DNA of 40,313 bases from a bacterium (GTDB lineage: Bacteria; SAR324; NAC60-12): the NCBI GenBank assembly GCA_965233585.1, contig CBDDTI010000164.1, positions 1 through 40,313 on the forward strand. Direction: 5' to 3'. This document shows, piece after piece, positions 8,922-35,718 of this stretch; positions within the stretch are counted from its first letter, which is position 1, and every line of letters begins with the position of its first letter. The notes under the pieces were generated by a model that worked only from the letters and a program-made list of their open reading frames with translations, ran no database searches and was not told the origin of the DNA. A program made the translations under genes and the position numbers.

Positions 8922-8954
8922 TGTACCCCCAAGAAGAAAATTGAGGAAATAGAA
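8922..8954 (-). other. U-rich tract plus short PPT of element B
   Basis: 33-nt identity to 6660-6692, directly abutting the LTR. Confidence 0.65.
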
Positions 8955-10137: not shown

Positions 10138-10222
10138 CCAAGGATGACGGGTCAGAGACTTGGTCAAGGAGCTTAAGTGAGACGTCTTGCCGAGGATGAC
10201 GGATCAGAGACTTGGTCAAGAA
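10138..10222 (-). repeat. ~52-bp tandem repeat (2 copies), homologous to 5567-5700
   Basis: aggatgacgg(g/a)tcagagacttggtcaag occurs twice. Confidence 0.85.
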
Positions 10223-14000: not shown

Positions 14001-14226
14001 AAATCTCCGGATAGTCTTCAAAGAAGAGCGTCGGAGGTATTGAGGCATTGTTCGGCTTCCAGATAAAGATCCGTCGTGAATCCGGAGTCGGATTGAAGAA
14101 GAGTCGGCCTGTTGAATTACTCCCAACTACTAACCACAAATCGTAGTAGTCATAAGGAATATAAATAGGCTGTTTCTCGCCCAAGATAATGGCAATGAAG
14201 GATAACCAAAGAAGAGCAATCTTCAT
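11053..14226 (-). CDS. env: Env-like glycoprotein, chuvirus-G/class III fusion-like (start at MKIALLWL)
   Basis: Paralog of 1464-4658; signal peptide begins at ATG 14226; RLKR furin-like site; GYDC; TM segment. Confidence 0.8.
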   Translation of the reverse strand: MKIALLWLSFIAIILGEKQPIYIPYDYYDLWLVVGSNSTGRLFFNPTPDSRRIFIWKPNNASIPPTLFFEDYPEILQDDLSTTPSEIFEGTVSSNVPNTPPTTLEEIEETLPQTHSSGHFSTDTVATAALERPPPVKHKNTTNNVPGMSLLQLHRSLQLAEMMKTLSPQPATPNLPVPPQRNETSTVRPPSTAEIVDAKDEIDLTREGSRLYQLRKEKTRLKRQISPDAATELNLNDAQLNSLQAQVNRRFLTGYDCANPQEVKPISSFIQDPCEPIGANDQDNYEIGDKAQYQIVQYETRREFKGTRCELRTSRFTYYCGNADHASPYPQETYYKKPKTLRWEQCRDLATLGQYIAGDDKTYTVARNTRTEVPYFAFGSATAYTGFQGAQISCTGNTMLIDGKEIHHMVMYITEEILYRDETFVTRDNEDTVVAHYDNVRLTCPIEEQQCVGNDVTYVWRVPLKEHCPLYHIRFFEGQMIKHQVDGLTVQTNKIVISTDQSNVRFVVKGKKEECDQTFLTTNYPDVMIRDTMLNGAVDRNLVKRPMPKDELQLSNFITNRDDFVYHAINRKMKQEFFSVLRDDCRETLRKIKTEHFLERQLPGLHTYRLGGSNYLTAAGEVAYFYKCQPRLVAAIRADTCYDALPVEIASQNDTLTTYFQADGHEAIVPRFYIEPLTHRLTSVAKKVPCLSKFFARYQDLFGQWFAVTPSISPTEPPGKLDLEALIKKATFDDSSDVDLSRGGIYEPEAVDDLITWLEGNRRQEVIMHQITKQVGDLSPGQYITPRLMFPPHTLPGGSWHSFILGKLWGAIRGLGEIFSSIFGLLIVGRLVWYLIKVLMNCSYIHSVHGCSAQLAWSFCTEVFFTRLYRREQKSSAERSDNDPTSKPKFPYETVYSTLVIFSQRMSADTDRTETPSTGIPVPMNPLRRSHSVSHLRKDTVSTCPNRLQSQLDRAFAAFQPCPPGMPRSPFPPDYVNDQRVGSPLDGTRATPSAPVDVNEISRAVPEPPPLPERTRTPNRFAFTPIVTPEARIPPIPNRDPVINRTPSGDPPPLPGR

Positions 14227-14247
14227 GTTAATTGAGAGCGAGAGATG

Positions 14248-14283
14248 GACTGAATGAGGCCTCCCCTCGATGGGCCTCTTATA
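14248..14283 (-). promoter_or_regulatory. Putative internal env promoter (TATAAGA + Inr TCAGTC)
   Basis: T of TATA at 14283 and A of Inr at 14251: 32 nt, as in element A. Confidence 0.6.
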
Positions 14284-14288
14284 TCTGC

Positions 14289-17200
14289 TTATGAGTGAGC
14301 AGGACATGTCCGAGTACGAGTACACTTAGCACATCTTTGTCTTGCAGTGTGCTGTTCACATGCGGAACCGGTTTTGCATTGTGTGCAGTGAGTAACGCAT
14401 GGAAGATTGGGCGTGCAGTTAGGACAAGGTCTGGGCTTGTTCTTTCTGCCCGGAGGTCGTCCTCGACCTCTACGAGATGCTGGCTCCGTTTGGGGTTCAG
14501 CTTTAGGTACAACTGTGACTTCGGGAGGAGCTTCCGGAAGTGGTTCTGCGGTTACCGGAACAGTAACAGCAGGTTCAGGATCTTGCGGGACAGGTACAGA
14601 AACCGGAGGGTCAAAAGACTGTCCGTCAGCAAGGGGAGTGATAGGGACATCATCCCTAGGAGAGGGTGATGGTAACGTCATTGGAAGTTCTTGTTCCTTG
14701 TCAAAGACATGTGGAGCGAAGTCAGAGGCAGGTAGCCTTCCTAACAGCTCTTGGTCTTCGAAGTAAGGACGAACGTCTGTGGCAGTCAACTCTACTGGTA
14801 CGCCCAAGTTGGTGTCAGGATCGGTGACGTAGCACTTCTTGAGTCTATCGACAGCTGCGGAAGTGATGATCTTACTCTTAGTCCACCTTCCGTAGGACTC
14901 GATCTCGAAAATAGTGTTGGAAAGCTGTTTAACAACTCTGTAAGGTCCAGACCAAAAGGATTGGAACTTTCGGTTGAGGCTAGGGTTGGCTCGGTCGGTG
15001 AAGAGCCACACAAGGTCATCAATGTTGATCTTGTGTTGTCTTTCTCGATACAGCTCCTTTTGGCGCATTATGTAAGAATTCTGACGTTCAGTTACAACAG
15101 AAAAAGCTTTCGCGAATTGATTCCGAATCTTATCTGTGTACTTGTCAAGATGTTCGGGTTGAACAGGCGGAGGTCCAGCGATCATGTCGACAGGTAATCT
15201 GGCTTCTCTACCATGTTCAAGGTAGAACGGAGTGAAACCAGTGGTGCGGTTGACTGAAGTTCTCATTGCTAAAAGTGTAGCAGGTAGAGCTTCGTCCCAT
15301 TCGTCGTCGAATTCATGGATCAGAGCAGTAAGTTTGCGCTTCATGCTGCGATGAAATCGCTCAACAGTGTTGCTCTTGGGATTGTAAACCGGCGTAGTGG
15401 TAGTTCGAACATCAAAGGCTGCCATGGCCACTTGAAAAACATGTGCAATAAAGGCAGGTCCATTGTCAGAGTGAACTACTGAAGGAACGCCACGGTCTGG
15501 AAAGTAATCCCTAACTAGGAATTTGATGACAGTCTCAGCCTTCTGATTCTTAACTGGCCAGGCGGTGAACCAGCGAGTATAAACGTCAACGGCAGTGAGC
15601 AGAGAAGTATGTCCTTTCTTTGTTGGTTTGAGAGGTCCGACAAAATCGAGACAAATCTTCTCTCCAGGACTTCCAACAAGGTCATAACCATACGTATGGC
15701 GTTGAGCTTTTTTGTTGGATAGCTTCTGACAGCGAGGACATTTGAATACATATTCCCGGCAAAAGCTAACTAGACGGGGGAATATATACTTTAGCTGTAC
15801 ACAATCAGCCAGAGAATTTCCACCGGCATGATTTTTGCCATGGAAGGAAGCGAGAACCTTATTCCAGAGTTTCTCAGGAAGAGGAATCCGAACATCCTTT
15901 TCATTGGTGAAAGGAATGGGATTTCGAACGAGGAGGCCGGAAGGCAGAATTTCCAGATATTCGAAGCAATCAACATAAAACTTTTCATCTGGGTTGAGTA
16001 GCTTGTACTCTTGTGAGGTAGGTTTGTGCTGTTGTCTGACCCAGGCGGAGATCTTGGATAAAGTGATATCAGTCTGTTGTTTCTCAATGATATCGTCCTC
16101 ATAGGGACCTTGGGGAACCGGAAATTCGGTTTGGTGTGGAATGCGAGGATCAGTGTCATCGGATTCGCTGAGAGAATCCTCGTCTTCAGATTCTTGGCCA
16201 TCATCTTCAGGAGCTTCTCCTAGCAAGAGGATCTGATCATCGGCCAGGATCTCTTGAGCTTCCTTTTCAGAGAGGAAAGGAGCATGAGAGGTTCGAGACA
16301 AAGAATCCGCGTTACCATGCTTGGTACCGGCTCGATGTTGGATGTCGAAATCATAACTGCTGATGATTCTCAACCACCTCATCAAGATACCCTTAGGATC
16401 TTTTTGAGTTTTCAACCAAGATAAGGCAGAATTATCAGTACGGACAAGGAACTTTCTACCAGTCAGGAAGAATTTGTAGGTATCTATAGCGAAGATCAGA
16501 GCAAGTAATTCTCCCTTATGGGAAGCGTACTGGGATTCGCTTGGTTTCAGTCTGCGAGCGTTAAATGAAATGGGTCTTTCTGTCCCATCTTGGATCTGCG
16601 AGAGGACTGTACCTAACCCTTCGTGAGAATAATCAGTATCGACTATGAAAGGTTCGGAGCTATCAAAGTCAGGATAGGCCAACAACTGCGGAGACATGAG
16701 CAATTGTTTTAAAGACTCGAAGGAAGCAATTGCTTTAGGATCTTTTTCCAGGTCCAACTTGCGTGAACTTTCACTGGCACCTTTGAGATGGGCCATTAAG
16801 GGTGAAGCAATAATCGCAAAATTTTGGAAGTGACTTCGGTAATAGTTGCACTTTCCGAGAAAGGCTCTGAGATCCTTCAAAGTCTTGGGCAATGGCCAAT
16901 CCTTGATGATCTGAGAAAATTCAGGAGGAACAGATACCCCCTGGTCGGAGATTAGGTGTCCAAGGAATTTCACTTCCGTTTTGACCCAATCGGTCTTTTC
17001 CATATTGAGCCTTAACCCAGCCTTTTGTAACAGGACAAAAACCTGTTTAAGGGTATCAACATGTGTAGTTAGGTCAGGAGAGTGAATAAGAAGATCGTCA
17101 AAAAAGACGATGAGCTGAGATTTCGGAATCTCATGTAACACCTGAGTGACCAGTCGTGCCCAAGTATTAGGAGCACTGGTTAGCCCGAAGGGCATTCGAC

Positions 17201-18725
17201 AAAATTGATAAAACTTATCTAGAGCACAAAAAGAAAGCTTTTCGCGGTCAACTTCGCGAACGGGAATGGAGTGAAAAGCTTGGGCAAGATCCAGAGAAGT
17301 GAAAATTTTGCTTTTCCGAAGATAGCTTAAAAGCTCGATGATGTTTGGGATAGGAAAGGAGTCTTTTCGAGTGACAGAGTTAAGAGCTCGAAAATCAACT
17401 ACCCATCTCCATTTTCCATTCTTTTTTCGAACTGGGAGAAGAGGAAAATTCCAGGGAGAGACTCCTCCGGAACGAATAACACCATCTTTTAGCCATACGG
17501 CTATCTGTTCTTTAAGAGACTCCGTCAAACCAGGGTTGATCGGACGGTTCTTCAAGCGAATAGGTGGAAGTCCTTTGGGAGTGTAAACGGGATGCTCAAT
17601 GACATCAGTTCCACCGCAATTTCCTTCTCTATAGAAGACATCCCAAAAACTCATAATCAAATCAATTATTTGTCCAGAGGTGCGAGGGTTCTTCTGTAGG
17701 ATAGGATTATCGCGAAAGTTCAACACTTGTCGAATGTGTTCGCGTCGCTTCTCATGGGATGCGGGAGTTAGTTTACTGGTAGGAATATTGCTCATCCAAT
17801 CGGACGGTTTTGAAGGTTTTTCTGTAATGGTCATAACTTTAGTCATATTTATGACAGAGCGATGATGTTCTGGAATCAAGATAGTGCCAATATCACAGTT
17901 ACTGCTAATAGTCACGGAATGCGGAGATTCATTGAAAAAGTATACTTCGACCTCGTTTGTGTCGGAGATAGAAGTAATTTGTTCTAAAGAATTCAGACCG
18001 AAATAGATGTCATCCTGATCAGGATGAAGACTATTTATTTTGCGGATAAAAGAATCTTTAAAATTGAAAACAGAATCTGTAGGATCGTGTACTTCGGTTT
18101 CTTCTACGCGAACCGGAATAAGTTTCCCAGTTCTGGGTGGAATAGTTTGGCGCATCTTGCTGTAGGCGGTGGTAGATCGGTCGCCAATGGTAACGACATT
18201 AATCTGGGGAACTGAGTCGATTTGCTTCTTGAGACGTCGGCGAGCATGATTGATGTTCCGATACAACGGAAAACGAAGATTCTCTGGACTCTTTGAGAGA
18301 ATCCCTTGAGACAAAATTAAATCCAGGCCATGTTCAACCAAGAAAGGTAAGGAGATGTTGAGGCCGCAAGAAAGATGTTTGACGAGGACAAGTCGGGATG
18401 GTAACACATGTTCCTTCCCGGTGTCGTCAGGAATGTAAAAGTTAATAGAGGGAACAATTCCCACTATATTGATGCTAGAACCGACGGAAGCGGTGCCTAC
18501 TGGAGAACCAGTATATGGCTGATAATCCGTAATCGGGATCTTTTTAGCCACTGACAATGATAATGCGTTGCAGAAACTGTTGCCGCTATCGACAAGAGCC
18601 ATAACTGTTCGTCCATTGAGTCGAACAGGAAGAAGTTTGGGTAAAGAAGAAGAGATAGTCCGGCAGGAACTGATTAGATCCTTTGGGTCTTTTTGAGAGA
18701 AAATACCACTTAATGGCTGCGACAT
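14289..18725 (-). CDS. pol: Pol polyprotein: aspartic protease, RT, RNase H, integrase with AT-hook/Cys3His tail
   Basis: ALVDSG; WRWVVDFRALN, LDLAQAFHSIP, MPFGL, FFDD; FIVDTDYS..GLGTVLSQ; H..H..CPRC, DDE, GPY. Confidence 0.97.
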   Translation of the reverse strand: MSQPLSGIFSQKDPKDLISSCRTISSSLPKLLPVRLNGRTVMALVDSGNSFCNALSLSVAKKIPITDYQPYTGSPVGTASVGSSINIVGIVPSINFYIPDDTGKEHVLPSRLVLVKHLSCGLNISLPFLVEHGLDLILSQGILSKSPENLRFPLYRNINHARRRLKKQIDSVPQINVVTIGDRSTTAYSKMRQTIPPRTGKLIPVRVEETEVHDPTDSVFNFKDSFIRKINSLHPDQDDIYFGLNSLEQITSISDTNEVEVYFFNESPHSVTISSNCDIGTILIPEHHRSVINMTKVMTITEKPSKPSDWMSNIPTSKLTPASHEKRREHIRQVLNFRDNPILQKNPRTSGQIIDLIMSFWDVFYREGNCGGTDVIEHPVYTPKGLPPIRLKNRPINPGLTESLKEQIAVWLKDGVIRSGGVSPWNFPLLPVRKKNGKWRWVVDFRALNSVTRKDSFPIPNIIELLSYLRKSKIFTSLDLAQAFHSIPVREVDREKLSFCALDKFYQFCRMPFGLTSAPNTWARLVTQVLHEIPKSQLIVFFDDLLIHSPDLTTHVDTLKQVFVLLQKAGLRLNMEKTDWVKTEVKFLGHLISDQGVSVPPEFSQIIKDWPLPKTLKDLRAFLGKCNYYRSHFQNFAIIASPLMAHLKGASESSRKLDLEKDPKAIASFESLKQLLMSPQLLAYPDFDSSEPFIVDTDYSHEGLGTVLSQIQDGTERPISFNARRLKPSESQYASHKGELLALIFAIDTYKFFLTGRKFLVRTDNSALSWLKTQKDPKGILMRWLRIISSYDFDIQHRAGTKHGNADSLSRTSHAPFLSEKEAQEILADDQILLLGEAPEDDGQESEDEDSLSESDDTDPRIPHQTEFPVPQGPYEDDIIEKQQTDITLSKISAWVRQQHKPTSQEYKLLNPDEKFYVDCFEYLEILPSGLLVRNPIPFTNEKDVRIPLPEKLWNKVLASFHGKNHAGGNSLADCVQLKYIFPRLVSFCREYVFKCPRCQKLSNKKAQRHTYGYDLVGSPGEKICLDFVGPLKPTKKGHTSLLTAVDVYTRWFTAWPVKNQKAETVIKFLVRDYFPDRGVPSVVHSDNGPAFIAHVFQVAMAAFDVRTTTTPVYNPKSNTVERFHRSMKRKLTALIHEFDDEWDEALPATLLAMRTSVNRTTGFTPFYLEHGREARLPVDMIAGPPPVQPEHLDKYTDKIRNQFAKAFSVVTERQNSYIMRQKELYRERQHKINIDDLVWLFTDRANPSLNRKFQSFWSGPYRVVKQLSNTIFEIESYGRWTKSKIITSAAVDRLKKCYVTDPDTNLGVPVELTATDVRPYFEDQELLGRLPASDFAPHVFDKEQELPMTLPSPSPRDDVPITPLADGQSFDPPVSVPVPQDPEPAVTVPVTAEPLPEAPPEVTVVPKAEPQTEPASRRGRGRPPGRKNKPRPCPNCTPNLPCVTHCTQCKTGSACEQHTARQRCAKCTRTRTCPAHS

Positions 18726-18759
18726 AGTAAAGTGAGAAAAGGAAGGGAATCGTAGATCG

Positions 18760-21700
18760 TTATGACTGAGATTTCCCGAAGCGACTAACGAGCTGCTCGT
18801 ATCGGTCGCGATACCTATGAAGTAGCATCTGAGCCACTGGCAAGAGATTCTGTCGCCTCAGCTGGCGCATCTTCTGGAACGCTTGATGTCCCAGGTTTAT
18901 GTCCAGTGCAGGAGATTCGAATTTGCAGCTCTCCCACCTTCGGGACATTCTCATTAAGGAGTTGTTTCTCGCTAAAACAGCAAGTTCCTCATTGAAGGAC
19001 TTCTTCTCTTCTGGAGTAAGAGAAGCGTAACTTCTTCGGTCTTCTAACGTGAAGCCTAGCCGAAACTTGTCGGAGACGGTCTCGTCAGCGACCAAGGCAG
19101 TCTTATCCAATAGGACATGAGCCCTATGATCCTCAGCTCGGCGATAAGACTCTGCAGGGATCTCGGAGAGGAATGGTAGCAAGGTTTCAAACCTGCGAAG
19201 CCTCCAAGTGGCATCCATCCGTCGGCCGCGGTGACATGTCCGGCACCTAGAGCTGGCGAAGAGGCTAGTGATCTGGGCAACGGAGTTTTTGACCAGATGG
19301 TTGCTGAGATCCTCTATGAACTCGGAGCTCTCGAACTGGAAAGCTTCCTCAAATGCCTGATAAAGGTTACTTATAGCTACCTTGAACTTCGCTTCTAGCT
19401 TCTCTCGGTTGTATCGACTGCTAGTGGGAGTGTCAGTGTCAGGGGACTGTCTAGTGACCTTGACATTAAATTGTTGGATCCGAATGTTTCCTCTCTGTCT
19501 CACTTCATGGAGCTTTTGTTGATCCAAGAAGTAGGCGTGATAGAACAAACTGGGATTGCGCTCAACTTTGTTGCGATCCCAAGTGTCGGCTTCCAATTTC
19601 AGAACTTCTTGGGCGAATCGTTGGTGGTCCTCCAAAATAGAAAGTGCCTGAAATGAAAATTGGATCGGAGTGGTCTTGGGACTTTGGACTTCTCCGGTGA
19701 GAACGTCAATCTCCGAATCCTCTTGAGGGTCTTCTTGAGGAAGTTGAACCGAGAAATCGTCCTTAAGGGTGGAAGAGAGTTGAGCTTCTGCCTGTCTTCG
19801 AGTTTCATTCTCCAATCCGGCCAAATGTGCAATGTTGGCAGGATAGTCAGGAAGTATCTCCACTTTCCTGGGCCCGTTTCCAGAAGGAACGGTAATCCTG
19901 AGGTTCTCCTTCGGGAGAGTGGTTCCAGCGAAAGGAATCGGCACCGGTGATGGAACAGTGTCCTTGGGTTTTCCTCGGCCGATACCACGGACTTTCTGAG
20001 CGTCTACCAGAAAATCAGAAACGGCTCCTGGAGAGCGACGAGTCTGGGAAGGCTCAGAATTGCGGGACGATGAAGACCTGGATCTAGGTCTTGATTTCCT
20101 CCTGGCCTTCTTGGAAGTAGTTCCCGTTGGCACTGCAAAATCCGAACTGCCCTGAGTCTTGGAGTTTGCAGGAGGTTCAATGATGGTGTCATTGGTCGTG
20201 ACAGAAGTTGATGGAGTGTTAGCTGCGGGGGCGGACACGTTGGGGTCAACTTCCGCTTCAGTGTCAGTAGCGGGTAACGGAATCTCCGAAGGGATTACCG
20301 GAGGTACTGCATCCAATGTTGGTTCAGCGGGGACAGGAACCAAATCAGGTTTTGGGACCGCTGATTGGGAGACAACCACATTATGCGGAGGTGGGACCGG
20401 ATAATAGTAAACTCCTCCATAGAGGATGTAGTTCTGGGTGGCTGAACATGCCGTGGCATTTGCATCAGGATTGATGCTGTTAGCAGCTAGAGGAGGAAAC
20501 ACATCTTCTTCCATGGGGGGCTGCTCAGGGGAGAAAGGATTTTGCTCATCCTTGATGGTTGGAATTTGAACGACGGGAGTGTTCATAGTTGAAGTGTTCA
20601 GCAGGGTTGCGTCTAGAGGACTGAATCTTGAAGAATAATCTCCAGTCTTCATCGACATCGGGGAATCTGCTTTTTCCCCTTCCAGTCGCAAACCGCTTAC
20701 CCCTGGACCCAAAGTTCCAGACGGAGTGCATGGATCTAAGAAGACGTTAGACATGTTGATGTCGGGGTCATCTAGTAATGAGTCTGGGTTAAACATCAGT
20801 ATGTGGAGTTCCCCTTCATCTTCATCCGAAGTTCCACTAGAGGCAGGATCGAGTTGCATGAGACTTTGTTCAACGATTTCTTCGTCGTCTGAGCTGGCAC
20901 TCTCAAGAGAAACCCCTTCCGTGTCTTCAATCGAACGCAAAAACTTCTTTTTGTCAGAGGTCGATTTGAATTTCAACTTTCTGGGTTTAGTTTTTCGTTT
21001 CTCAGCTCCCTTGGGACGCTTCTTTGCGGCGGTTTTAGAGCTGGAGCCAGAGGGCGCAGTCTCCTTCTGAGCTCTACAATCGCTGTTGGAATGTTTGTCC
21101 GTTTTATGCAAAGAACACCATTTCTTCAGCACTTGTATTGTGGCTGGAGAATCTTGAGTCTCAATCATCTGAATATGTCCCCTGGGACTCTTGGATGACT
21201 TCGTGTTCAATGGGTTGCTGGCAGATGCCGCCATTTTCCAGGCCATGGACCGTTGTTTCATTATTTGGTCCCCATGGTAAATTGCTGCAGTCATTGACAT
21301 GGCTTTTTCAACCGCTTCACGGAAATAGCTGGGCAAAGGTGGTATGCGCAACTTTTGCTTAACCTCTGTCGAGATTAGACCAGTAATGAAACGATCCATA
21401 AGGAACATAGACAAATCAGGGTTCAAGCCAGGATACGCTCGATAAAACAATTGTTCAATTTTAATCGCATAATCTTGTACAGGCATGTCTTCGCGCTGAG
21501 TAAAACCGTTAAAGAGACCGACCGCAACGATACGATTTCCAGAGGTATTGAAAATACGATCGAGAGTTGTCAGGAGTTCCTGCAAGTTCTGCATCGTAAT
21601 ATTCTGAGAGACATTTTTCGACATTTCTGCGGCTTTGTCTTTCAGCAAATGTAAGGCAATCCTACAAGCATTGGGCTCAGTAGGTTGAAACAAATTAACC

Positions 21701-22476
21701 CCAGACAAGAACTGTGCTACCCATTCGGGAAACTTGCTCATGTCTTGACCAGTAAAAATGTCATACTTAGCGGCGGAGCCGAAAAGTTTGGCTTTTCTAG
21801 AGGCCATGTCGTCGTTACCAGAGAAGGTAACCATGACGTTATTACCTACTTGGTCCATTCTACGAGAGACGGTTCCGTCTGGGTTTTGAATGCTAGGAGT
21901 AAACGTCGCAGGTGCTCCGTAATAACTCGTACCAGCAGTCGGAGGGACTGGCTGAAAAGCAGAGGGCTGCACAGGTACAGAAGCCGAGGCCATTAAGGCT
22001 GGTGGTTCCGTTGCTTGTGAGACCTGAGGTGCCAATACTGGCGCGGAAGGCATAGCTGCCTGAGATTGCGTTGCCATTGTTGGCACTGCAGTAGAAATAT
22101 CCTGAAAAGATTGCGTTGCCACTGCTGGCACTGCAGGAACCCTAGGAACTGGAGCCACAGGTGGCAGTCGTTCCTGTAATACTGTTAATATTTGGTTCAG
22201 CTCATCCCGATTGGAATTTGCTAGGTTAGTAAGACGTGATTGCTCCGATCGGAGTGTTTCATATTTAGACCTATTTAATTCCACAAATTTGAGGATATAG
22301 GTTAACAATTTACGAAAGCGGGGTCCATTTAGACCATGCGCGAGAGAATCGATAAAAGAAGTAACCTGTGCTTCTGAATCTGCAGACAATTGGAGTGTGG
22401 CTAGTACGTCTGAAAGGGTACTAGGTCCAGCTGCTTGGGCCCCTGTTGGGAGTTCCTCATCTCCATCACGTTGCAT
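18760..22476 (-). CDS. gag: Gag-like polyprotein (1238 aa) with long C-terminal extension
   Basis: First ORF after the PBS; capsid-like IFTG..FPEWVAQF, QREDMPVQDYA, DRFITGL; CxxHxxxxHxxxxC knuckle. Confidence 0.88.
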   Translation of the reverse strand: MQRDGDEELPTGAQAAGPSTLSDVLATLQLSADSEAQVTSFIDSLAHGLNGPRFRKLLTYILKFVELNRSKYETLRSEQSRLTNLANSNRDELNQILTVLQERLPPVAPVPRVPAVPAVATQSFQDISTAVPTMATQSQAAMPSAPVLAPQVSQATEPPALMASASVPVQPSAFQPVPPTAGTSYYGAPATFTPSIQNPDGTVSRRMDQVGNNVMVTFSGNDDMASRKAKLFGSAAKYDIFTGQDMSKFPEWVAQFLSGVNLFQPTEPNACRIALHLLKDKAAEMSKNVSQNITMQNLQELLTTLDRIFNTSGNRIVAVGLFNGFTQREDMPVQDYAIKIEQLFYRAYPGLNPDLSMFLMDRFITGLISTEVKQKLRIPPLPSYFREAVEKAMSMTAAIYHGDQIMKQRSMAWKMAASASNPLNTKSSKSPRGHIQMIETQDSPATIQVLKKWCSLHKTDKHSNSDCRAQKETAPSGSSSKTAAKKRPKGAEKRKTKPRKLKFKSTSDKKKFLRSIEDTEGVSLESASSDDEEIVEQSLMQLDPASSGTSDEDEGELHILMFNPDSLLDDPDINMSNVFLDPCTPSGTLGPGVSGLRLEGEKADSPMSMKTGDYSSRFSPLDATLLNTSTMNTPVVQIPTIKDEQNPFSPEQPPMEEDVFPPLAANSINPDANATACSATQNYILYGGVYYYPVPPPHNVVVSQSAVPKPDLVPVPAEPTLDAVPPVIPSEIPLPATDTEAEVDPNVSAPAANTPSTSVTTNDTIIEPPANSKTQGSSDFAVPTGTTSKKARRKSRPRSRSSSSRNSEPSQTRRSPGAVSDFLVDAQKVRGIGRGKPKDTVPSPVPIPFAGTTLPKENLRITVPSGNGPRKVEILPDYPANIAHLAGLENETRRQAEAQLSSTLKDDFSVQLPQEDPQEDSEIDVLTGEVQSPKTTPIQFSFQALSILEDHQRFAQEVLKLEADTWDRNKVERNPSLFYHAYFLDQQKLHEVRQRGNIRIQQFNVKVTRQSPDTDTPTSSRYNREKLEAKFKVAISNLYQAFEEAFQFESSEFIEDLSNHLVKNSVAQITSLFASSRCRTCHRGRRMDATWRLRRFETLLPFLSEIPAESYRRAEDHRAHVLLDKTALVADETVSDKFRLGFTLEDRRSYASLTPEEKKSFNEELAVLARNNSLMRMSRRWESCKFESPALDINLGHQAFQKMRQLRRQNLLPVAQMLLHRYRDRYEQLVSRFGKSQS

Positions 22477-22522
22477 AATGGAGTATTAAGCCAAAGGCTG
22501 TTTCCCCCCGAAAAGGGTTCGC

Positions 22523-22531
22523 CTGCCACCA
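22523..22531 (-). other. Primer binding site, probably tRNA-Leu
   Basis: TGGTGGCAG 2 nt after the LTR end, complementary to the ...CUGCCACCA 3' end of tRNA-Leu(AAG/UAG). Confidence 0.7.
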
Positions 22532-22533
22532 CG

Positions 22534-22945
22534 TGAAAGGTCGGGAGGTATTTTATAACGAGGCTTAGAAATAACGGACGACTTTCGCAAGTGAATGCTA
22601 AATCTAATCTGAATTTATTTCACTTCTTTTGATTACGAAGTAAAACGAGTTTTGTGGTCACGAGTTTTGTTCCCACAAAAGCATATCTTATTGATAAGTG
22701 AGCATGACAACAAAGGCAACAAGTAAGGCGTCGTTGACTGTGGAGTTGAAAAGTGCTTAAGCGCGTGACACCAGAGTGAGGGGTGAGCGATTCTCGAGAA
22801 TTGGAACTGACTCTTAACCAGACCGGTTCATGTCGGGTTAATTAGGTCGTCACTGTAGTTAAGCACAAAACGAGAAGGAAAACTTGCTTTTTAGAAGGGT
22901 GGATTTTATGAACATAAAATTTAAGTAATTAACCTGGACCCTTCA
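22534..22945 (-). repeat. 5' LTR of element B (412 bp)
   Basis: TGAAGGG...CCTTTCA on the minus strand, followed by the PBS. Confidence 0.96.
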
Positions 22946-23151
22946 TTGTAATAAACATAGGTTGGGTTCCTAGGTTTTGGAGCCTTAGGTTGTCGGTGCA
23001 GAGTATAGGTGTCCGACGCCTGCAGCCATTTCTTTATTTTATTTATGGGTATGGTCCCGTTAAAATGATTAAAAACGCGGTTCGGCGATGAAAAAGCAAA
23101 AGGCGAGCCGGGCGAAGTGTAAGCTTTTAAAAATTCGCGTTTAGTAATCAT
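22946..23151 (-). pseudogene. N-terminal fragment of Polinton retroviral-like integrase, truncated by the LTR
   Basis: YTSPGSPFAFSS...IKKWLQASDTYTLHRQP...RNPTYV matches the usual Polinton integrase N-terminus; frame runs into the LTR at 22945. Confidence 0.8.
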
Positions 23152-23569
23152 CCTCGTCGTCGTCGTTGTCGTCCTCAACATAAAACAGCGGTTTTTGTTT
23201 TGTTTTTCTTCTCTTACCGCTTCCTACCGCATGCGTGCTATTTTTTCTCTTGACCGGTCTCTTGGACGCCTGTGCAGGCCTACTCGCCTTACCAGCCAGT
23301 AAGATGTTTCTAGTCGCGGATTTTAATCTCTTTTTCGCAGCGGCTCCAACTGCTTTGCCGTCCAAGGCTTCCAGTGCGGTGTCAATGGCCGCTCGTCCCG
23401 CCTCTTTTTTCAAATATCGTCCCGCGGATCTGACACCCTCGCTTCTCGCAATTTTACCGATTGTCTTTGCGGCGCCCTTCGCCACCGGAACCAACGACCG
23501 GAAAAGACTGCTAAAAATTGAACCTAATCCCGCCCCAGCTTGCACAGACGGACCACGGTGGTATCGCAT
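23141..23569 (-). CDS. Basic virion protein with amphipathic N-terminal helix (adintovirus cupiennin-like)
   Basis: QAGAG|LGSIFSSLFRSLVPVAKGAAKTIGK; K/R-rich C-terminus. Confidence 0.7.
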   Translation of the reverse strand: MRYHRGPSVQAGAGLGSIFSSLFRSLVPVAKGAAKTIGKIARSEGVRSAGRYLKKEAGRAAIDTALEALDGKAVGAAAKKRLKSATRNILLAGKASRPAQASKRPVKRKNSTHAVGSGKRRKTKQKPLFYVEDDNDDDEDDY

Positions 23570-23575
23570 ACTTTA

Positions 23576-24295
23576 TCAATTTTCAATTTTTTTGACGCAC
23601 CTGCTTAAGGCCATCGGACTAACGCCTAATTGCTCGGCTAAACGCGATAAGCTTTTCGGCTTTTCCTGATCAACCCTACTCCGTTGTTCTCTTAAAAAGA
23701 CGTGCGCGCATGCCGCGATTAGTGTTTTTGGCGAAAAAACAAACTTTTTTTCGTGTTGCTTTACTTTCTCTCTAATTTCCTTCAACTCCTTGTAGCTTAG
23801 ATTTAAAGAGTGAAGAAAATATTCGCACATTAAATTTGGGCTGTAGAAAGAGTCGTCGTTTTTAAGATATTGCCACACTTTGTCCTGCTTGACGCCGGTT
23901 ATGGCACATAAATCTTTCATCGGTCGCGGCACCCCCGACTCTATAAGCGCGGTGTAGATGCACATTACCGCTAAACTTTCTAAACAAACACCTCTTTTCC
24001 CTCTTTTCCCGCTAGCGTCCCATTTTTTGGCGATGACGCGTTTTAAATCCGCGCATTCGATATTGCACTTATAGCATACCCTTTGCATTGTCTCATCAGT
24101 AAAATTGTTTTTGTCGCAAGTCACATCCTCGCTCATTTTCTCCGTTTTAATCGATTCGAGCCGATAGTCGTACGGGGCATATAGCCGATCATGCATCACG
24201 AGCCCGCAATCTGTACATACTTCACACCCGTTTGAAAAATCATCCACAATATTGTAATGAGAACAAGTCCTGTTGAAATTATGAAAACGAGGCAT
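23576..24295 (-). CDS. TFIIB-like transcription initiation factor
   Basis: Zn ribbon CSH...DFSNGCEVCTDCGLV; cyclin-fold motifs CIYTA...VPRPMKDLC, SPKTLIAAC, LAEQLGVSPMALSRC. Confidence 0.85.
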   Translation of the reverse strand: MPRFHNFNRTCSHYNIVDDFSNGCEVCTDCGLVMHDRLYAPYDYRLESIKTEKMSEDVTCDKNNFTDETMQRVCYKCNIECADLKRVIAKKWDASGKRGKRGVCLESLAVMCIYTALIESGVPRPMKDLCAITGVKQDKVWQYLKNDDSFYSPNLMCEYFLHSLNLSYKELKEIREKVKQHEKKFVFSPKTLIAACAHVFLREQRSRVDQEKPKSLSRLAEQLGVSPMALSRCVKKIEN

Positions 24296-24320
24296 GTTTA
24301 TTTCTCCGCACGCGCTGCAA

Positions 24321-24356
24321 AACTGAAACGCGAATCAACTATCGATCGCTTTTATA
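24321..24356 (-). promoter_or_regulatory. TATA + Inr promoter of the TFIIB-like gene, overlapping the TBP 3' end
   Basis: TATAAAA (T at 24356) and TCAGTT (A at 24324), 32 nt apart; ATG at 24295. Confidence 0.6.
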
Positions 24357-24899
24357 TTGTTTCAAAAAATCTATAATAAAGTCCAAACTATGTTTGACCG
24401 CATCTTCGGACTTGGCCCCGATGATTACCATCTTGCCTGTGGAAAATATTAAAACCGTGTTGGCTTCAAAAGTCACAAACATGCCTGGGAAACGTTCGGG
24501 ATTGAAGCGTACTTTTTTCACGTAGCTCTCCTTCCGAAGTTTATCAAAAACGTCCGGCAGCGGTATCTCAAAGCCCGCACGAAAGGAACAAGTTAAATTG
24601 TTTATTTCCCATGTTTGCACAAAGAAACGATTGCTGATAATGTCCGTCAGCAGACTTAACGATATTTTTATATCCGCTCGCGATGGCACTTTGGTAATAT
24701 TGACATGATATGATTTGTTGTTTCCGCGGGTCTTGAAAATGGTGTAGACGTATTGTTTCCTCACTACCGTAAAATTACTAAAAACTTTTTGTGACACATC
24801 TTTATTTAAGGATAACGGCCCCTCATCCGTAAGAATAATTGTGCAGCTAAGCTTTATATTTGTCACAGTGACGTGCTCCGTGTTGTCTAGAAATGTCAT
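24339..24899 (-). CDS. TATA-binding protein (TBP)-like, core domain only
   Basis: VTNIKLS, INNLTCSF, RFNPERFPGM, VLIFSTGKMVIIGAKSEDAV. Confidence 0.9.
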   Translation of the reverse strand: MTFLDNTEHVTVTNIKLSCTIILTDEGPLSLNKDVSQKVFSNFTVVRKQYVYTIFKTRGNNKSYHVNITKVPSRADIKISLSLLTDIISNRFFVQTWEINNLTCSFRAGFEIPLPDVFDKLRKESYVKKVRFNPERFPGMFVTFEANTVLIFSTGKMVIIGAKSEDAVKHSLDFIIDFLKQYKSDR

Positions 24900-26233
24900 C
24901 GTTGATTAATGGCGGTGTCGGCGGTTTAAATGTGGATTTCAATGAATTGCAGGGTGATAGTTTGAATGCGCATGCGACCCCCCTCGAAGACACGGATTTA
25001 ATATCAGGTCGTACTGTGCTATATAGTAGCGTGACTCCCGTCGAAGATTTAGAAGATGTTACGTTTTCAATTCCTTCCGACCCCGAATGCGCTTTTGTTT
25101 TAAATCAGACAAGGCTAGAGGGTTACTTTGTGGTAAAGACCGACAGCGGCGAGGGTGTAACAGACACTGACACGCCAACAATTACTAACCATTATTGCGC
25201 CGCATTATTCTCGCAAATTGAAGTCCACCTTAACGGAACTCAAATATGTGATTTGAGTGCCCCTCTTTCTTATTCGTACAAACACCACATTGACTTTCTC
25301 CTGTCCTATAACAATAATGTATTAACAAATGTGGGACGGTCCGAAGGCTTTTGCCGAACGCACCACGACAAATGCTTTGACAATATTAGCACGACCGGTA
25401 AAATGTGCCAATGCATCGCGGAGAATCGTGCGAAAATAATAAACGACAAAAAAGTTTATTTTAGCTCAACTTTGCCCGCAGATATTTTTTACACCGACAA
25501 ATATTTACCTCCGAATGTGGAAATCACTGTTGTATTACGCAGGTTCAACCCGTGTTTCGGGCTGCTTCAAGATAATCCGAACAAAGTCTATCGCATTCGT
25601 TTAAAGGAATTAAAACTTCGCATGAGAAAAGTGTTACCGTGCGAGCGTGTGCGAAACAGGCTAAACGCCGAACTGCTAAAAGGTCGACCATTTTTTCTGC
25701 CTTTTAAAGACACGCAGATGAAGCATTATCTGATCCCGTCTGGTTCCCTTAGTTTCTCTGCAAATCACATCAACAATAGCGAGATGTTGCCGCAACAAAT
25801 TATTTTCTGCATGCTTCGAAGCGACCTTTTTGCCAAGGGACCGAGCGATCAATTTCCCTTTAAATTTAAACACGCCGATTTAGCATCCGTCATTTTAAAA
25901 AACAATGGAAGACTTCTCATGCCTAGACCTATAGAATGCAAGATACTTACAGGCGATTATATGGAATTGTACGACCATTTTCAAAGCAACGTCGGCGGCA
26001 GAAATTGTATTTCACCCCAAGCTTTTACAGAGGGTCAGATGTTTCTCGCGTTCGACCTGACTCCGGATAAATGCCTATCCTTTCACAATCACGTCGGAGT
26101 GCCCGGAAATTTAGAACTAGACTTGACTTTTAACACCCCCACCAGAACCCCCCTAACCCTGATTTCTTACGCTATTTATAATGCTGCCATTTCCATCGAC
26201 AGCAACCTTCAGGTTACCAAAATAAAATATTAA
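24893..26233 (+). CDS. Major capsid protein (hexon-like double jelly-roll), paralog 1
   Basis: FSIP..LNQTRL, ALFSQIEVHLNG, YSYKHHI, DKYLPPNVEI, LPQQII, FLAFDLTPD. Confidence 0.8.
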   Translation: MSSLINGGVGGLNVDFNELQGDSLNAHATPLEDTDLISGRTVLYSSVTPVEDLEDVTFSIPSDPECAFVLNQTRLEGYFVVKTDSGEGVTDTDTPTITNHYCAALFSQIEVHLNGTQICDLSAPLSYSYKHHIDFLLSYNNNVLTNVGRSEGFCRTHHDKCFDNISTTGKMCQCIAENRAKIINDKKVYFSSTLPADIFYTDKYLPPNVEITVVLRRFNPCFGLLQDNPNKVYRIRLKELKLRMRKVLPCERVRNRLNAELLKGRPFFLPFKDTQMKHYLIPSGSLSFSANHINNSEMLPQQIIFCMLRSDLFAKGPSDQFPFKFKHADLASVILKNNGRLLMPRPIECKILTGDYMELYDHFQSNVGGRNCISPQAFTEGQMFLAFDLTPDKCLSFHNHVGVPGNLELDLTFNTPTRTPLTLISYAIYNAAISIDSNLQVTKIKY

Positions 26234-26302: not shown

Positions 26303-27637
26303 ATGACTGAAAAGGGCGGCATCGGAGGTCTAGGGTTCGAGCAGGACGATTTGACAGAACAAGCTCTTGATCTGCACGCGCCGCTCGGGGTCGATATAAG
26401 CCTTGAAAAAGGCAATGATGTGGTCTACAACAGCGTTTCCAGCGTTTCAAACACCGGACCGATCGAATTCATCATCCCGCGAGACGAAGAGTGTTCCATC
26501 ATTCTGGATCAGACTAGATTAATAGGGCATTTCGTTGTCAAGACAGCAAAGGATGAAAATGTCGGACCCGACGATCGAGTCTTTTTGGCCAATAATTTCG
26601 CGAGCAATCTATTTAGCGCGGTTGAAATCTACATTAACGGTACTCAAGTCTGCGACTTGAGCACGGCAAATTCCTACCCTTTCAAAAACTTTATCCAGAC
26701 CGAGTTGTCGTTTGATAGAGAGGCCAAACAGAGTCAGCTAAGAGCCGAAGGTTATTTTGAAGAAAAAGAAAACGATATTGGAGCTTGCGAGCCCGGTATA
26801 AATCAGCGTTTAATACACCGTCGAAATCTTATACTTCACGGCAAAAAAGTTTATTTCTGCTCTCGATTGGGGGCGGATATTATGTATACGGATAAGTATA
26901 TGCCACCGAATGTCGACATCAAGATTAAGCTTATTAGAAACAGTCCGACATTCGGTATTCTTCACGCCGAAGATGACAAATCTTTTAAAATCGTTTTAAA
27001 GGATTTAAAGTTGAAAATGAGAAAAGTTTTGCCGGTCGAGCAGCAGAGAAAGCATTTTAGGATGAAAATGTCTCAACAGCCCTGCTATATACCCTTTAAG
27101 CTGAGTCAGTTGAAGGTTTTTGTGATTCCAGCCGGCGTCACATCGTACACCGTTACCAATATTGCCTCACAAATACTGCCCAAACAAGTTATTTTCACCC
27201 TAATTCACAACCAAGCCTTGACGCACGATAGCAAATTCAACCCGTTCGACTTTCAACACTTTGATCTTAATTATTTCAATCTTATTAAAAACGGACAATG
27301 CGTCTTCCCAAAAGCTTTTCAGCCGGATTTTGATGATGATAACTACATGGACCTGTACAGACACATGTACGACAGCACGGGTTTCGGCATTTCAAATAGT
27401 TCTTGCGACATTTCGCCCGCGGTTTTTAAGAGAGGAAGATGTTTTCTAACTGCCGATTTGACCCCCGATCGCTGCAACAGTTTTCACATTCACCCCGACG
27501 AAAAAGGCAAGTTGGACTTGGAATTAGGCTTTAAAACAGCCAAGCCTCACCCCATCTACCTGCTAGCCTACAGCATTTTTAATTCCGGAATTAAAATAGA
27601 GGAGAACGGCCAAGTTGTTAGGGCCGAAGAGCGATAA
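26303..27637 (+). CDS. Major capsid protein (hexon-like), paralog 2
   Basis: GPIEFIIP, NNFASNLFSAVEIYING, YPFKNFIQTEL, DKYMPPNVDIKIKL, NPFDFQHFDL, DLTPD. Confidence 0.85.
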   Translation: MTEKGGIGGLGFEQDDLTEQALDLHAPLGVDISLEKGNDVVYNSVSSVSNTGPIEFIIPRDEECSIILDQTRLIGHFVVKTAKDENVGPDDRVFLANNFASNLFSAVEIYINGTQVCDLSTANSYPFKNFIQTELSFDREAKQSQLRAEGYFEEKENDIGACEPGINQRLIHRRNLILHGKKVYFCSRLGADIMYTDKYMPPNVDIKIKLIRNSPTFGILHAEDDKSFKIVLKDLKLKMRKVLPVEQQRKHFRMKMSQQPCYIPFKLSQLKVFVIPAGVTSYTVTNIASQILPKQVIFTLIHNQALTHDSKFNPFDFQHFDLNYFNLIKNGQCVFPKAFQPDFDDDNYMDLYRHMYDSTGFGISNSSCDISPAVFKRGRCFLTADLTPDRCNSFHIHPDEKGKLDLELGFKTAKPHPIYLLAYSIFNSGIKIEENGQVVRAEER

Positions 27638-28122
27638 TGGCCGGTTTGAGCAACGTATTTCTAGATCGGTTTTTATCCCCACTTTGCAAGAATTTCATCG
27701 GCACCTTTGCAGTCGACACGATACCCTCAAACTTGTGGAACACTAGCTGTTGCGCCATCGTCAATCTTTCGGTTTCAAGCCATCCCGGCAGTCATTTCAT
27801 CGCCTTTTTTATTAATAAGCAAAACTATTTGTATTATTTCGACAGCTATGCACTACCCGTGCCCGCCTATAATCACCACCTCATCCATTTTTTGAAAAAA
27901 TGGGAAAATTGCGGCAGAATAAGACATGTCCTGGACCGATCGATTCAAGCTTTCGATTCATTGTTTTGCGGGTGGTATGCTGCCGCATTCTGCATGTTTG
28001 TCAATGCATACGCAAACGCGAATCCGCGGCACTTTTGCACTTTTTTTAATCCCGTTAATTTACGCGAAAATGAAAAACGCGTCAAACATTTAGTTAATTG
28101 TTTGCAAGTCAAGCTTTATTAG
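27637..28122 (+). CDS. Adenain-like (C5) cysteine maturation protease
   Basis: IVNL...PGSHFIAF, YFDSY, IQ...SLFCGWY give the His/Asp/Gln/Cys set. Confidence 0.9.
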   Translation: MAGLSNVFLDRFLSPLCKNFIGTFAVDTIPSNLWNTSCCAIVNLSVSSHPGSHFIAFFINKQNYLYYFDSYALPVPAYNHHLIHFLKKWENCGRIRHVLDRSIQAFDSLFCGWYAAAFCMFVNAYANANPRHFCTFFNPVNLRENEKRVKHLVNCLQVKLY

Positions 28123-32089: not shown

Positions 32090-35000
32090 ATGAACAGCGA
32101 CTCTGTAAACGTGCCCGAGTATTTATTAAAGTGTCGAAGTGTTTTATGGAACAGAAAATACGATGAAAAGAACTTTCTATATTGTGTCATACGACATCTT
32201 TGGCCGGAAACGGCAAACATCAGACGATGCGAAAAAATTCCCAAGGAGTATGAAAGTAAATTTAACTTGCAAGGTTTAACCTTTCCCCTGCAGTTTAGCC
32301 AGATTAGTAAGTTTGTTCGAATTAACAAGCACCTACCGTTACGTATAAGAGTTCTTTTTGAAGGTGAACATCAACTGAGTGTTTTAGACGTTTTCTCCAA
32401 TAGATCTGGCGAGAAAAATAAGAACAAAAATACGCTAAATTTGCTAATGATTAAAAGTGATTGTCGAATTTCATCGGCCAATAAAGACAGCATTGACGTA
32501 AATGGCATTTCCAACGTAAAAGACCTTGAGCATCAGCACCATTTTTTCACTATTGCTAATTTAAATGGCTTTTTGAACAACCGAAAATCTGCTATGACCA
32601 AAGGAAGACGGCATAGAAGTCAGTTTTATTTTTGTGACAGCTGTTTAAGAGATTTTCGTTCGCACAAGAAACAAAAATTACACGAAAAAATCTGTCAAAT
32701 GGATAAACAAGCGGTGATTTATCCGGAAAAGGGCAGTGTCTTGAATTTCGATAAGCAAAGAAATGCTTTTAAAGCACCTGTAGTGGGATTTGCTGATTTT
32801 GAGTGTTTTATGGAAAAGTCAGAGCAAGAAGCAAAAACATGTAAAACATGCGGAAAAGCGTGGGTGACATGCGAATGTCAAGTGTCGGGATGCACTGAGC
32901 TAAGTAAACATCGAGCTTGCGGCTATTCAATTTGTTTTGTCGATTCGGAAAACGAAGTATTTTATCAAGAAACGTACAGTGGAAAAGACGCTGTGGAAAA
33001 TTTTCTATCAAAGCTGGATTATTTCGAAGAATTAGTGGAAGCGCGAAAGCAACGGTTCAAGAACACATCTCAAATTATAGCGAGCAAACATGATTGGGAA
33101 GAGTACCGCGCCGCCACGCTATGTCATATTTGCAAAAAAGAATTTGATTCAGGCTCGCGATTATATAAAAAAGTGGTTGATCATGATCACGTCACCGGAA
33201 ACATTGTTCAAGCGGCGCATTCTATTTGCAATCTGCAACGACAGGGCCCATTTAGAACACCTATATACTTTCACAACGCCAAAGGGTAAGTACAGACTTT
33301 TTTAATATTTATAATCCTTGACTTGAGGGAAAGTCATTTTAAATTTTTTTAATTTTAAGATATGACATAAATCTACTAGTAGAAAAATTGGACAAAGAGG
33401 CTAATCTGATGGCGAGTAACCAAGAAAAGTTTAGGACAATCACTATTGGAAAATTTCAAATTAGGGATTCTCTAGAGCACGTGCCATCCAGTCTTGATGC
33501 GCTCATGACCGATTTATGCAAGGATGAGACGTTTACCTTTCCGATTCTCAAACAATTCGAGCCTTACAGGAGGCTGTGGACGCGACAAAAGGCGAAAGGT
33601 TTAAAATTATTGAAAAGAAAAGGAGTATATCCGTATGAATACTTTTCATCATATGAGTCAATTAAAAACAGTCAATTTCCACCAAAAGACGCTTTCTACT
33701 CGAGATTGAGCGAAGCCCACATCTCAACCGAAGATCATAAGCACGGCTATGAAGTGTACAAGTTTTTTAATTGTAAAAATATGGACGACTACATGAAGTT
33801 ATATTGCGGACTGGACGTGATTTTGCTGGCTGAGATTTTTGTAAAGTATCGAGAAATGGTGATGAAGCACTTTGAGTTGGATCCCATCTACTATTTAGGT
33901 ATACCTGGCTTGTCATTTGACATCATGCTGAAAATGTTTCAAAATGAAGAAAGAAAAGACGAAGAAGAGATTAGTGCCGATTTTATGTCGAAACCACCGG
34001 GCTCATTGGACTTGTTTCACGATCCGGCAATGGAACAGTTTTTTACACGCGGCATTAGAGGAGGGCAGAGTTTTATAGCTACCAGACAAGCGACGGGTCA
34101 GGCCGATCCTAAAGCGAGCGGCGAGCATTTACTATATGTAGATGGTAATATTTTTTATTAAACGTCAAAGAAAAAAAGATTGATTAAAATTACGATACAT
34201 TTTCAGCTAACAATCTTTACGGCAGCATGGAAACACGCATGCTGCCGGTGGGTAATTTTAAGTGGGTGCCAAAAAAGGTGATAAAAACATGGACGGACAA
34301 GGACATTTTGAATTTGCCTTCGCAAAGCAGGATTGGCTATGCTTTTGAAGTGGATTTGCACTATCCAAAAAAATATCATAAGGTAAAAAAATTTGTTTTT
34401 GCTAAACACCAACTGCTAGAAAAATTTTTTTATTTATTTTGCAGAGAGATGATCAATTTCCTTTGGCTCCTTACACTGACACAATAAACTTTGATGATCT
34501 GTCACCGTTTAACAAACAACTTTTGAAGAAGCACTGTCCGGCTGATTACAAAAACAAACGTTACAGTTCGCGAAAGCTTCTTGCCACATTCTACCCGCGA
34601 CGTAAATATGTCGTCTTGTTAGATAATCTAAAGTATTATTTGAGGCGAGGGCTGAAGCTTACAAAAATCAGACGAGCGGTCAAGTTTGAGCAAAAAGACT
34701 TTTTAAAAAACTTTATCACAAAAATTACAAAATTAAGGTCGGAGGCGAAAACTGATTTTGAATTACGTCTCTTCAAGTTGTTTGCCAATTCCACATTTGG
34801 CAAATTTATAGGTAAAATAAAGTAATGGCTCCCTTTTTTCACAATAAAATGTTTAATTTTTTTTCAGAGAACGCGCGAAACTACATCGAAATCGTGTTGT
34901 GCCACAATGAAAAGAAGCTGAGAAAGACTTGCATGGGTCAGCATGTTTCGAATTTGAAAGTCATAAACGAAAACCTTGTGGCTGTCATGAAAAAACCGGC

Positions 35001-35655: not shown

Positions 35656-35718
35656 ACGTATTGATAAAAATTGATGGTAATATCTTGTCTCTTTTTTGTG
35701 TCAAGAAAAATTAAAAAC

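Follow-up and report, generated by a model that had tools for sequence, protein, structure and literature searches.

The usual view is that small nuclear DNA viruses depend on the general transcription factors of their hosts; virus-encoded homologues of TATA-binding protein (TBP) and of TFIIB are known mainly from large viruses that carry an RNA polymerase of their own. The TBP mimic of herpesviruses contacts RNA polymerase II (Pol II) itself and is not known to be accompanied by a TFIIB homologue. In the present study, a linked pair of genes for a TBP-like and a TFIIB-like protein was analysed on the contig CBDDTI010000164.1 (GenBank assembly GCA_965233585.1), whose 40,313 nucleotides (nt) are called the window below. 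The pair lies beside the capsid genes of an endogenised, partly decayed copy of a Polinton/adintovirus-type virus in an animal-like genome; this element extends from about position 22947 to at least 38300 and is therefore about 16 kb or more in size.

The described systems that come closest to this pair are cited here, as is the other literature below, from excerpts of the respective papers. In beta- and gamma-herpesviruses, a viral TBP mimic (ORF24/UL87/BcRF1) recruits host Pol II to late promoters (PMC4893493; 10.1101/2025.08.25.672222; PMC13345323). The pre-initiation complex of these viruses, which are likewise nuclear DNA viruses without their own polymerase and with a viral TBP-like protein, is the closest known analogue of the way in which the pair may work, with no homology expected; unlike in that complex, a bona fide TBP is here accompanied by a homologue of TFIIB. 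Virus-encoded homologues of the same two factors are also found in the Nucleocytoviricota, namely the TFIIB of giant viruses, iridoviruses and ascoviruses, the C315R-type protein of asfarviruses and the TBP/TFIIB-like heterodimer VITF-3 of poxviruses, the poxvirus pair being described as an atypical TBP/TFIIB-like pair (PMC12917281). However, these viruses have their own multisubunit RNA polymerase, of which there is none in the scanned open reading frames (ORFs) of the window, and their genomes measure hundreds of kb against about 16 kb or more for the present element. Archaeal mobile elements and viruses resemble it in being small, polymerase-less and equipped with their own TFIIB-family factor; thaumarchaeal conjugative elements, for instance, carry their own TFIIB homologues (PMC6563490), and a rudivirus TFB is among the fold matches described below. 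Their hosts, in contrast, are archaea, their TFB is full-length, and no accompanying TBP gene is reported in the excerpts of PMC6563490. Finally, the legend to Fig. 5 of Starrett et al. (2021) labels a “TBP” gene in a MELD virus with an adintovirus-like protein-primed family B DNA polymerase (PolB) (PMC8502044; preprint 10.1101/697771). With this label, a TBP-like gene in a mid-size Polinton-related virus has already been published, while in the excerpted text of that paper TFIIB has 0 occurrences and the function of the gene is not discussed.

We lean, if only slightly, towards the reading that the viral TBP and the short viral TFIIB form a private initiation route which would steer host Pol II to viral genes. 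The original prediction, made by a model from the sequence of the window, had proposed an adjacent pair of a TBP-core ORF and a TFIIB ORF (Zn ribbon and two cyclin folds) in a virus without a visible RNA polymerase, which would redirect host Pol II to viral promoters. Both ORFs are present, at 24339..24899 (TBP-like) and 23576..24295 (TFIIB-like), and their folds were confirmed by Pfam, structure models, Foldseek and profile comparison, with Foldseek matching the TBP fold and the TFIIB fold, respectively. Moreover, the scanned ORFs of the window yielded no RNA-polymerase domain. Since the pair is present and such a polymerase is not, the two proteins probably steer host polymerase to viral genes; it is from these observations that we infer the redirection of Pol II to viral promoters.

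The TBP-like gene (minus strand) encodes 186 amino acids (aa), in which an eroded N-lobe (about residues 11–86) is followed by a canonical C-lobe (about 92–185), and its product is a two-lobed TBP. From the single sequence, the C-lobe alone was recognised: Pfam PF00352 matched residues 98–182 with an E value of 9.9e-17 (61 bits against a cut-off of 22.9), and the phmmer matches in the Protein Data Bank (PDB), in which 35 of 35 matched sequences were TBPs or TBP fusions (best 1mp9, 3.1e-17), were confined to the C-terminal half. The AlphaFold model, built on 31 aligned sequences, reached a pLDDT of 92.2 and a pTM of 0.82 and consists of two alpha/beta lobes, as in the saddle of cellular TBP, with the N-lobe lacking helix H1; among the Foldseek matches listed against the PDB, ranks 1–44 were all TBPs (TM 0.55–0.71). 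Additionally, the family profile, whose alignment includes four cellular-type TBPs, aligned positions 3–176 to whole TBP cores. The C-lobe carries the motifs FPG and F-S-x-G-K, and, unlike cellular TBP, the protein has no N-terminal tail.

At the positions that align with the DNA-kinking Phe pairs and the minor-groove Asn of both lobes, the TBP-like family has retained these residues, as in cellular TBP: F55 in 26 of 26 sequences, F137 in 27 of 27, F152 in 26 of 27, N14 in 20 of 20 and N101 in 27 of 27. Position 40 is the least conserved (F in 12, Y in 4 and H in 4 of 22), and the window protein has F40. The roles of these residues in TBP are described in part in PMC7221094. Because the C-lobe is canonical and the kinking Phe and minor-groove Asn are retained, the viral TBP would be expected to bind TATA-like boxes in the viral genome as the first step of the proposed route.

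The TFIIB-like gene lies 43 nt from the TBP-like gene on the same minus strand, and both are intronless; in being virus-borne, intronless and adjacent, the two differ from the cellular TBP and TFIIB genes. It encodes 239 aa with the order of cellular TFIIB, i.e. a C-H-C-C Zn ribbon (ligands C11, H13, C27 and C30) followed by two cyclin folds, with helices at 68–144 and 157–238. All of the 92 aligned sequences of the family have C27 and C30, and at least 90% of them have C11 and H13. The single sequence matched human TFIIB at 2e-6, with the ribbon and first-cyclin stretches matched separately and the ribbon aligned to human residues 23–46, and the profile of the 92 sequences matched human TFIIB, its best match, at 5e-31 over residues 110–288, which comprise both cyclin repeats. 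In the structure model (mean pLDDT 72, core about 80–90), a small beta ribbon is followed by disorder at 36–64 and then by 5 + 5 helices. Among the Foldseek matches listed for it, those with E ≤ 0.001 were chains of TFIIB, archaeal TFB or Pol III initiation complexes (Brf1/Brf2); TFIIB chains appeared at E 2e-6, and cyclins only from E 5e-3.

These Brf1 and Brf2 chains, together with the profile match to yeast Brf1 at 2e-19 (yeast TFIIB 7e-19, archaeal TFB 9e-18, Brf2 1e-10), are what might be expected if the pair served as Pol III (Brf-like) or Pol I-type initiation factors driving small viral RNAs. Such a role is very unlikely, considering that human TFIIB was matched far better, that cyclin fold 2, whose last helix closes the protein at residue 239, is followed by no TBP-binding C-terminal extension of the Brf type, and that 0 tRNA genes and 0 Rfam matches were found in the window. 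The protein is TFIIB-type rather than Brf or TFB.

The residues by which TBP and TFIIB are known to contact each other depart from the host pattern on both partners. The C-terminal stirrup reads F-N-P-E-R-F-P-G in the TBP-like family against Y-E-P-E-L-F-P-G in eukaryotic TBP, which, with the eroded first repeat, bears out the divergence of the TBP that had been noted in the original prediction; N133 is shared by 26 of 27 family members, as is R136, whereas the four aligned cellular-type TBPs carry E at position 133. In human TBP, E284 and E286 mediate TFIIB binding (PMC7221094), and the acidic TFIIB-binding stirrup (human E284, E286 and L287) corresponds, by our own numbering, to N133, E135 and R136, so that one of the three residues is kept. 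On the side of TFIIB, the basic TBP-contact residues are not kept either: in place of human R169 and K188, the alignment shows I118 (25 of 26 sequences in the close family) and Q137, respectively, and in the 92-sequence family the column of R169 is made up of N (26), K (20), I (11) and V (6), among others. The R169E substitution in TFIIB prevents association with TBP-TATA, and R169E/K188E has a stronger effect (PMC6004067). As far as can be judged from aligned residues, this is how a private, non-interchangeable pair would look.

In the second step of the proposed route, the short viral TFIIB would dock on the C-terminal stirrup of the viral TBP through this altered interface, which would make the viral pair poorly interchangeable with the host factors, and in the third step, the well-conserved Zn ribbon of the viral TFIIB would bring in host Pol II. 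The outcome would be a virus-specific initiation, less dependent on TFIID and analogous to that of the late-gene pre-initiation complex of beta- and gamma-herpesviruses.

The two genes are not peculiar to this copy. A word-indexed search returned 34 TBP-like clusters, with identities from 98% down to about 33%, as well as 28 TFIIB-like ones, from 99% down to 38%, and the nearest cellular-type TBPs among the relatives of the TBP-like protein reached only E 8e-10 to 5e-5 over 22–46% of the query. Eight of the 34 TBP-like clusters could be paired with a TFIIB-like cluster by the equal length of the longest source sequence (38135, 13686, 9421, 11102, 1794, 9991, 3532 and 5462). For nine pairs (these eight and that of the window), the two matrices of pairwise identities were correlated with r = 0.90, a value reached by 1 of 2000 random re-pairings; this correlation of sequence identities reflects shared history and linked inheritance and is by itself no proof of co-evolution. 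One protein, P0030, appeared in both hit lists; it joins, in frame, a middle part of the TBP-like type to a C-terminal part of the TFIIB-like type and is therefore taken to stem from a copy that had the same order of genes and suffered a deletion. In addition, 7 of the 53 listed relatives of the neighbouring capsid-type protein 1 (described below; the protein of the window is included in this number) share the source-sequence length with a TBP-like or TFIIB-like cluster.

An exhaustive search with the TFIIB-like profile extended this family to 770 clusters (at the 50% identity level) with E ≤ 1e-3, of which 166 had E ≤ 1e-10 and 16 had E ≤ 1e-30. Among the 150 listed, the proteins are mostly 205–290 aa long, i.e. 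shorter than cellular TFIIB. The pattern C-x(1,2)-H...C-x2-C was found within the first 90 residues in 126 of 146 newly returned proteins, and the ribbon lies near the N-terminus in the 40 proteins inspected from P0115–P0260. Of the 92 aligned members, 55 matched Zn_Ribbon_TF (E ≤ 1e-3), 45 the TFIIB repeat and one TBP. A natural fusion in a single ORF, P0235 (507 aa), combines a TBP-like domain, a Zn ribbon and TFIIB repeats; its TBP part matched both lobes of the TBP of the window (27% identity, E 3e-9). In an unlabelled tree of 100 TFIIB-like rows, for which P0235 was cut to its TFIIB part, the fusion stands far from the clade of the window. The TFIIB-like family is very divergent, with a median terminal branch length of 0.77. 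The linkage of TBP and TFIIB is thus seen at two distant points of the family. The literature covered by a full-text search contains no description of this large family, whose listed members are mostly 205–290 aa long. At the same time, a 185-aa TFIIB-repeat cluster in the Atlas, whose few classified members are Preplasmiviricota, hints that such proteins are already present, unremarked, in the databases.

Considering the many linked relatives, the correlation of r = 0.90, the chimera P0030 and the fusion P0235, the pair is no one-off capture from a host, an outcome which the original prediction had named as one that would speak against it; other copies, too, contain both genes together, and the genes stand at a great distance from cellular TBP and TFIIB. 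That the two ORFs are captured host genes carried as neutral passengers, or an artefact of annotation or assembly, is scarcely credible. The copy is indeed decayed, and several relatives are truncated or chimeric (e.g. P0010, P0011, P0027 and P0030), but the functional positions are conserved across 34 TBP-like and 28 TFIIB-like relatives down to about 33–38% identity, the two proteins diverged together, the TFIIB-like profile finds its 770 clusters, and both ORFs of the window are intact while PolB is broken.

The local arrangement is compact. The minus-strand viral genes comprise an ORF start cut by a long terminal repeat (LTR), a basic 142-aa ORF and the TFIIB-like and TBP-like genes, and the plus-strand genes diverge from the start of the TBP-like gene. 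The TBP-like ORF and that of capsid-type protein 1 stand head-to-head with start codons overlapping by 7 nt (24893–24899), and the promoter of each must therefore lie inside the coding sequence of the other. A TATA-like stretch is located at about 24852–24860, within the conserved N-I-K codons of the TBP-like gene. A putative consensus-type TATA box, TATAAAAGC, is found at 24348..24356 on the minus strand, 53–61 nt upstream of the TFIIB-like ATG; this TATAAAAG box sits within the last codons of the TBP-like gene. A putative poly(A)-type signal, AATAAA, at 24297..24302 (minus strand) starts 37 nt past the TBP-like stop codon, and in 7 of 15 genes A[AT]TAAA occurs no more than 80 nt past the stop, the expectation being about 0.19 per gene. 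These signals would fit compact Pol II transcription units; this single copy does not establish a promoter motif common to the viral genes.

Several results weigh against a private initiation route. The single TFIIB-like sequence stays below the curated Pfam cut-offs (Zn_Ribbon_TF 22 bits against 29, TFIIB repeat 14.6 against 23.6), and its fold search gave low TM-scores of about 0.33, owing to differing orientations of the domains. The pairing of clusters by equal source-sequence length gives an indirect view of synteny and leaves 26 of the 34 TBP-like clusters unmatched. For the pattern TWTAAAAGC, 7 sites were counted where 1.5 were expected, all of them in the viral part, but the pattern was derived post hoc from three of these sites, which inflates the enrichment, and in an unbiased k-mer test of the 100 nt upstream of 14 genes no motif rose above the null; TWTAAAAGC is unproven as a viral promoter motif. 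Moreover, the viral copy is decayed, with PolB in five frames and the left end cut by an LTR, and nothing in it shows expression of the TBP-like and TFIIB-like genes. A further point concerns the region that connects the ribbon to the first cyclin fold, which in cellular TFIIB holds the B-reader and the B-linker, needed for start-site selection and DNA opening. In the alignment, the distance from the last zinc cysteine to the conserved Pro-Arg (C30–P123) is 93 residues against 137 in human TFIIB, i.e. about 44 fewer, and residues 36–64 are poorly conserved, with a pLDDT below 50. The viral protein may have a minimal B-reader; the region being short, unconserved and of low model confidence, it is doubtful as a full replacement of TFIIB.

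The same shortened and unconserved reader/linker region would also suit a decoy, in which the pair, or the reader-less TFIIB alone, would sequester host Pol II, TBP-binding partners or promoters and so dampen host or antiviral transcription. The eroded N-lobe of the TBP, modelled without H1, may have lost surfaces for host cofactors, and the absence of a shared promoter motif in the k-mer test agrees with such a shut-off function as well. Nevertheless, it is unlikely: the Phe and Asn positions for DNA contact are conserved family-wide, the contact positions depart from the host pattern on both partners, as suits a private pair and not the engagement of host partners, and the linkage is stable, with the natural fusion P0235 as a further instance.

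In a library of viral structures, the nearest matches to the TFIIB-like protein were TFIIB-like proteins of giant viruses, iridoviruses and ascoviruses, together with an archaeal rudivirus TFB, at 11–18% identity; among these matches, none is named as a Polinton or adintovirus protein, and several entries are nameless. With such large viruses among the matches, and with virophages among the relatives of Polintons (PMC11244446), the factors might be imagined to work, virophage-style, with the polymerase of a co-infecting large DNA virus. We regard this as highly improbable, since the identity to the library proteins is so low, the best sequence-profile match is cellular (human TFIIB), the k-mer test detected no late promoter motif of the giant-virus type, and adintoviruses have been described as viruses of animals that bring along capsid and replication genes of their own (PMC8502044).

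A broader reading would make the TBP/short-TFIIB module old and widespread in a large Polinton/adintovirus-type radiation, where, as an orthogonal initiation pair, it would enable viruses without a polymerase to run a TFIID-independent Pol II programme; the TFIIB/TBP-like factors of giant viruses would be its sisters or its descendants. The reasons to consider it are the number of TFIIB-like clusters, 770, and the occurrence of linkage or fusion at two distant points of the family tree, but taken as a whole, it is rather doubtful. Were it true, the capture of the factors would have preceded the capture of a polymerase in that lineage.

As for novelty, the original prediction had presented viral TBP and TFIIB as foreign to the standard Polinton/adintovirus gene set, which can be upheld in part. 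A TBP in a Polinton-related virus is already in print, as a label in the MELD virus of Starrett et al. (2021), and TBP mimics are known from herpesviruses; the pair itself was found in no report in the full-text literature searched, where no description of a TBP-TFIIB pair in Polintons, Mavericks or adintoviruses came to light. A linked, co-inherited TBP-TFIIB pair in an integrating virus of about 16 kb or more without a polymerase would offer a compact natural system for virus-private promoter recognition. The possibly orthogonal TBP-TFIIB interface would have value as a tool, and the pair would add a new data point on the origin of the transcription factors of giant viruses.

The viral nature of the element, also proposed in the original prediction, is supported by a PolB above the Pfam cut-off, two paralogous putative capsid proteins of a double-jelly-roll (DJR)-like type and a weak match to an adenain-like protease. 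The term “Polinton-like virus” used there proved too loose, as the element has a protein-primed PolB and looks like a Polinton/adintovirus, and the copy is decayed. The DJR-like (capsid-type) protein 1 (24893..26233, plus strand; 446 aa) is the one encoded head-to-head with the TBP-like gene, and protein 2 (26303..27637, plus strand; 444 aa) has 39% identity to it. Neither gave a sequence match in Pfam, PHROG or the PDB. In the Atlas, the clusters closest to them consist of animal-associated “hypothetical proteins”, and the top cluster for protein 1 has PF21738 (DJR-like_dom) in 15% of its members, which serves as a lead only. Besides the tandem of the two paralogues (24893–27637, plus strand), no obvious separate penton gene was identified.

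A probable adenain-type maturation protease follows at 27637..28122 (plus strand; 161 aa), with sub-threshold matches only (Pfam Peptidase_C5, E 0.077; PDB 4wx4/4piq, “Protease”, E 0.11). The protein-primed PolB (32090..35655, plus strand) is broken into five ORFs in different frames (32090–33289, 33388–34161, 34227–34487, 34439–34825 and 34825–35655), two of which matched PF03175 with 30.4 and 27 bits against a cut-off of 25.8. An endonuclease-VII-like motif was noticed in the first of these pieces at about residues 341–388 (Pfam E 3.4e-4, below the cut-off; PHROG endonuclease VII 2.4e-5). Next to PolB, a P-loop ATPase (35671..36405, plus strand) is a candidate packaging ATPase; its family assignment is weak (sub-threshold ATPase_2 only), and it had no meaningful PDB match.

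Downstream of the pair, the basic ORF with an acidic tail (23141..23569, minus strand; 142 aa) begins 6 nt past the TFIIB-like gene. It had been labelled “cupiennin-like” in the original prediction, a label that finds no support in the Pfam scans, which gave no match at E ≤ 0.1 and, at E ≤ 5, one of chance level (E 0.37). The LTR-cut ORF start (22947..23181, minus strand; 86 aa) has no Pfam match and, judging from a motif, may be the N-terminus of a retrovirus-like (rve) integrase.

Several unknown ORFs lie between the protease candidate and PolB. One of 242 aa (28730–29458, minus strand) has a long Asp/Glu-rich tract and basic ends, and a second TATAAAAGC box is found ahead of it at 29539–29547. 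Beyond the ATPase, a lysine-rich ORF of 498 aa (36786–38282, plus strand) has units of 120 nt that are repeated internally, the recurrent motif D-E-N-E-P-L-S-K-L-R-R and a finger of the C2H2-like type, and is followed at 38552–38877 by a non-coding array of about five copies of a 61-nt unit.

The window as a whole is a mosaic with retroelements on the left and the virus-like element from 22947 rightwards. A partial LTR retroelement with an env-like ORF occupies positions 1 to about 7100 (plus strand), and a complete young one with gag, pol and env-like ORFs lies at 8528..22946 (minus strand). The latter is outside the virus and is context only, although its LTR truncates the viral left end; this end, where a terminal inverted repeat would be expected, has been replaced by the retroelement. 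The two aligned LTR blocks of the complete element are 100% identical, and its insertion was therefore very recent. No clear target-site duplication was seen at its flanks (8500–8530 and 22940–22960), and the 1.4 kb to its left (7100–8527) contain no continuation of the cut viral ORF or remainder of an integrase; the junction of LTR and virus may be a rearrangement rather than a simple insertion. The two retroelements are related, stand head-to-head and each carry an env-like ORF, and the ORFs 11053–14325 and 1464–4658 match Pfam Monjiviricetes_fusion, a viral fusion glycoprotein, with E values of 6.5e-53 and 6.4e-49, respectively.

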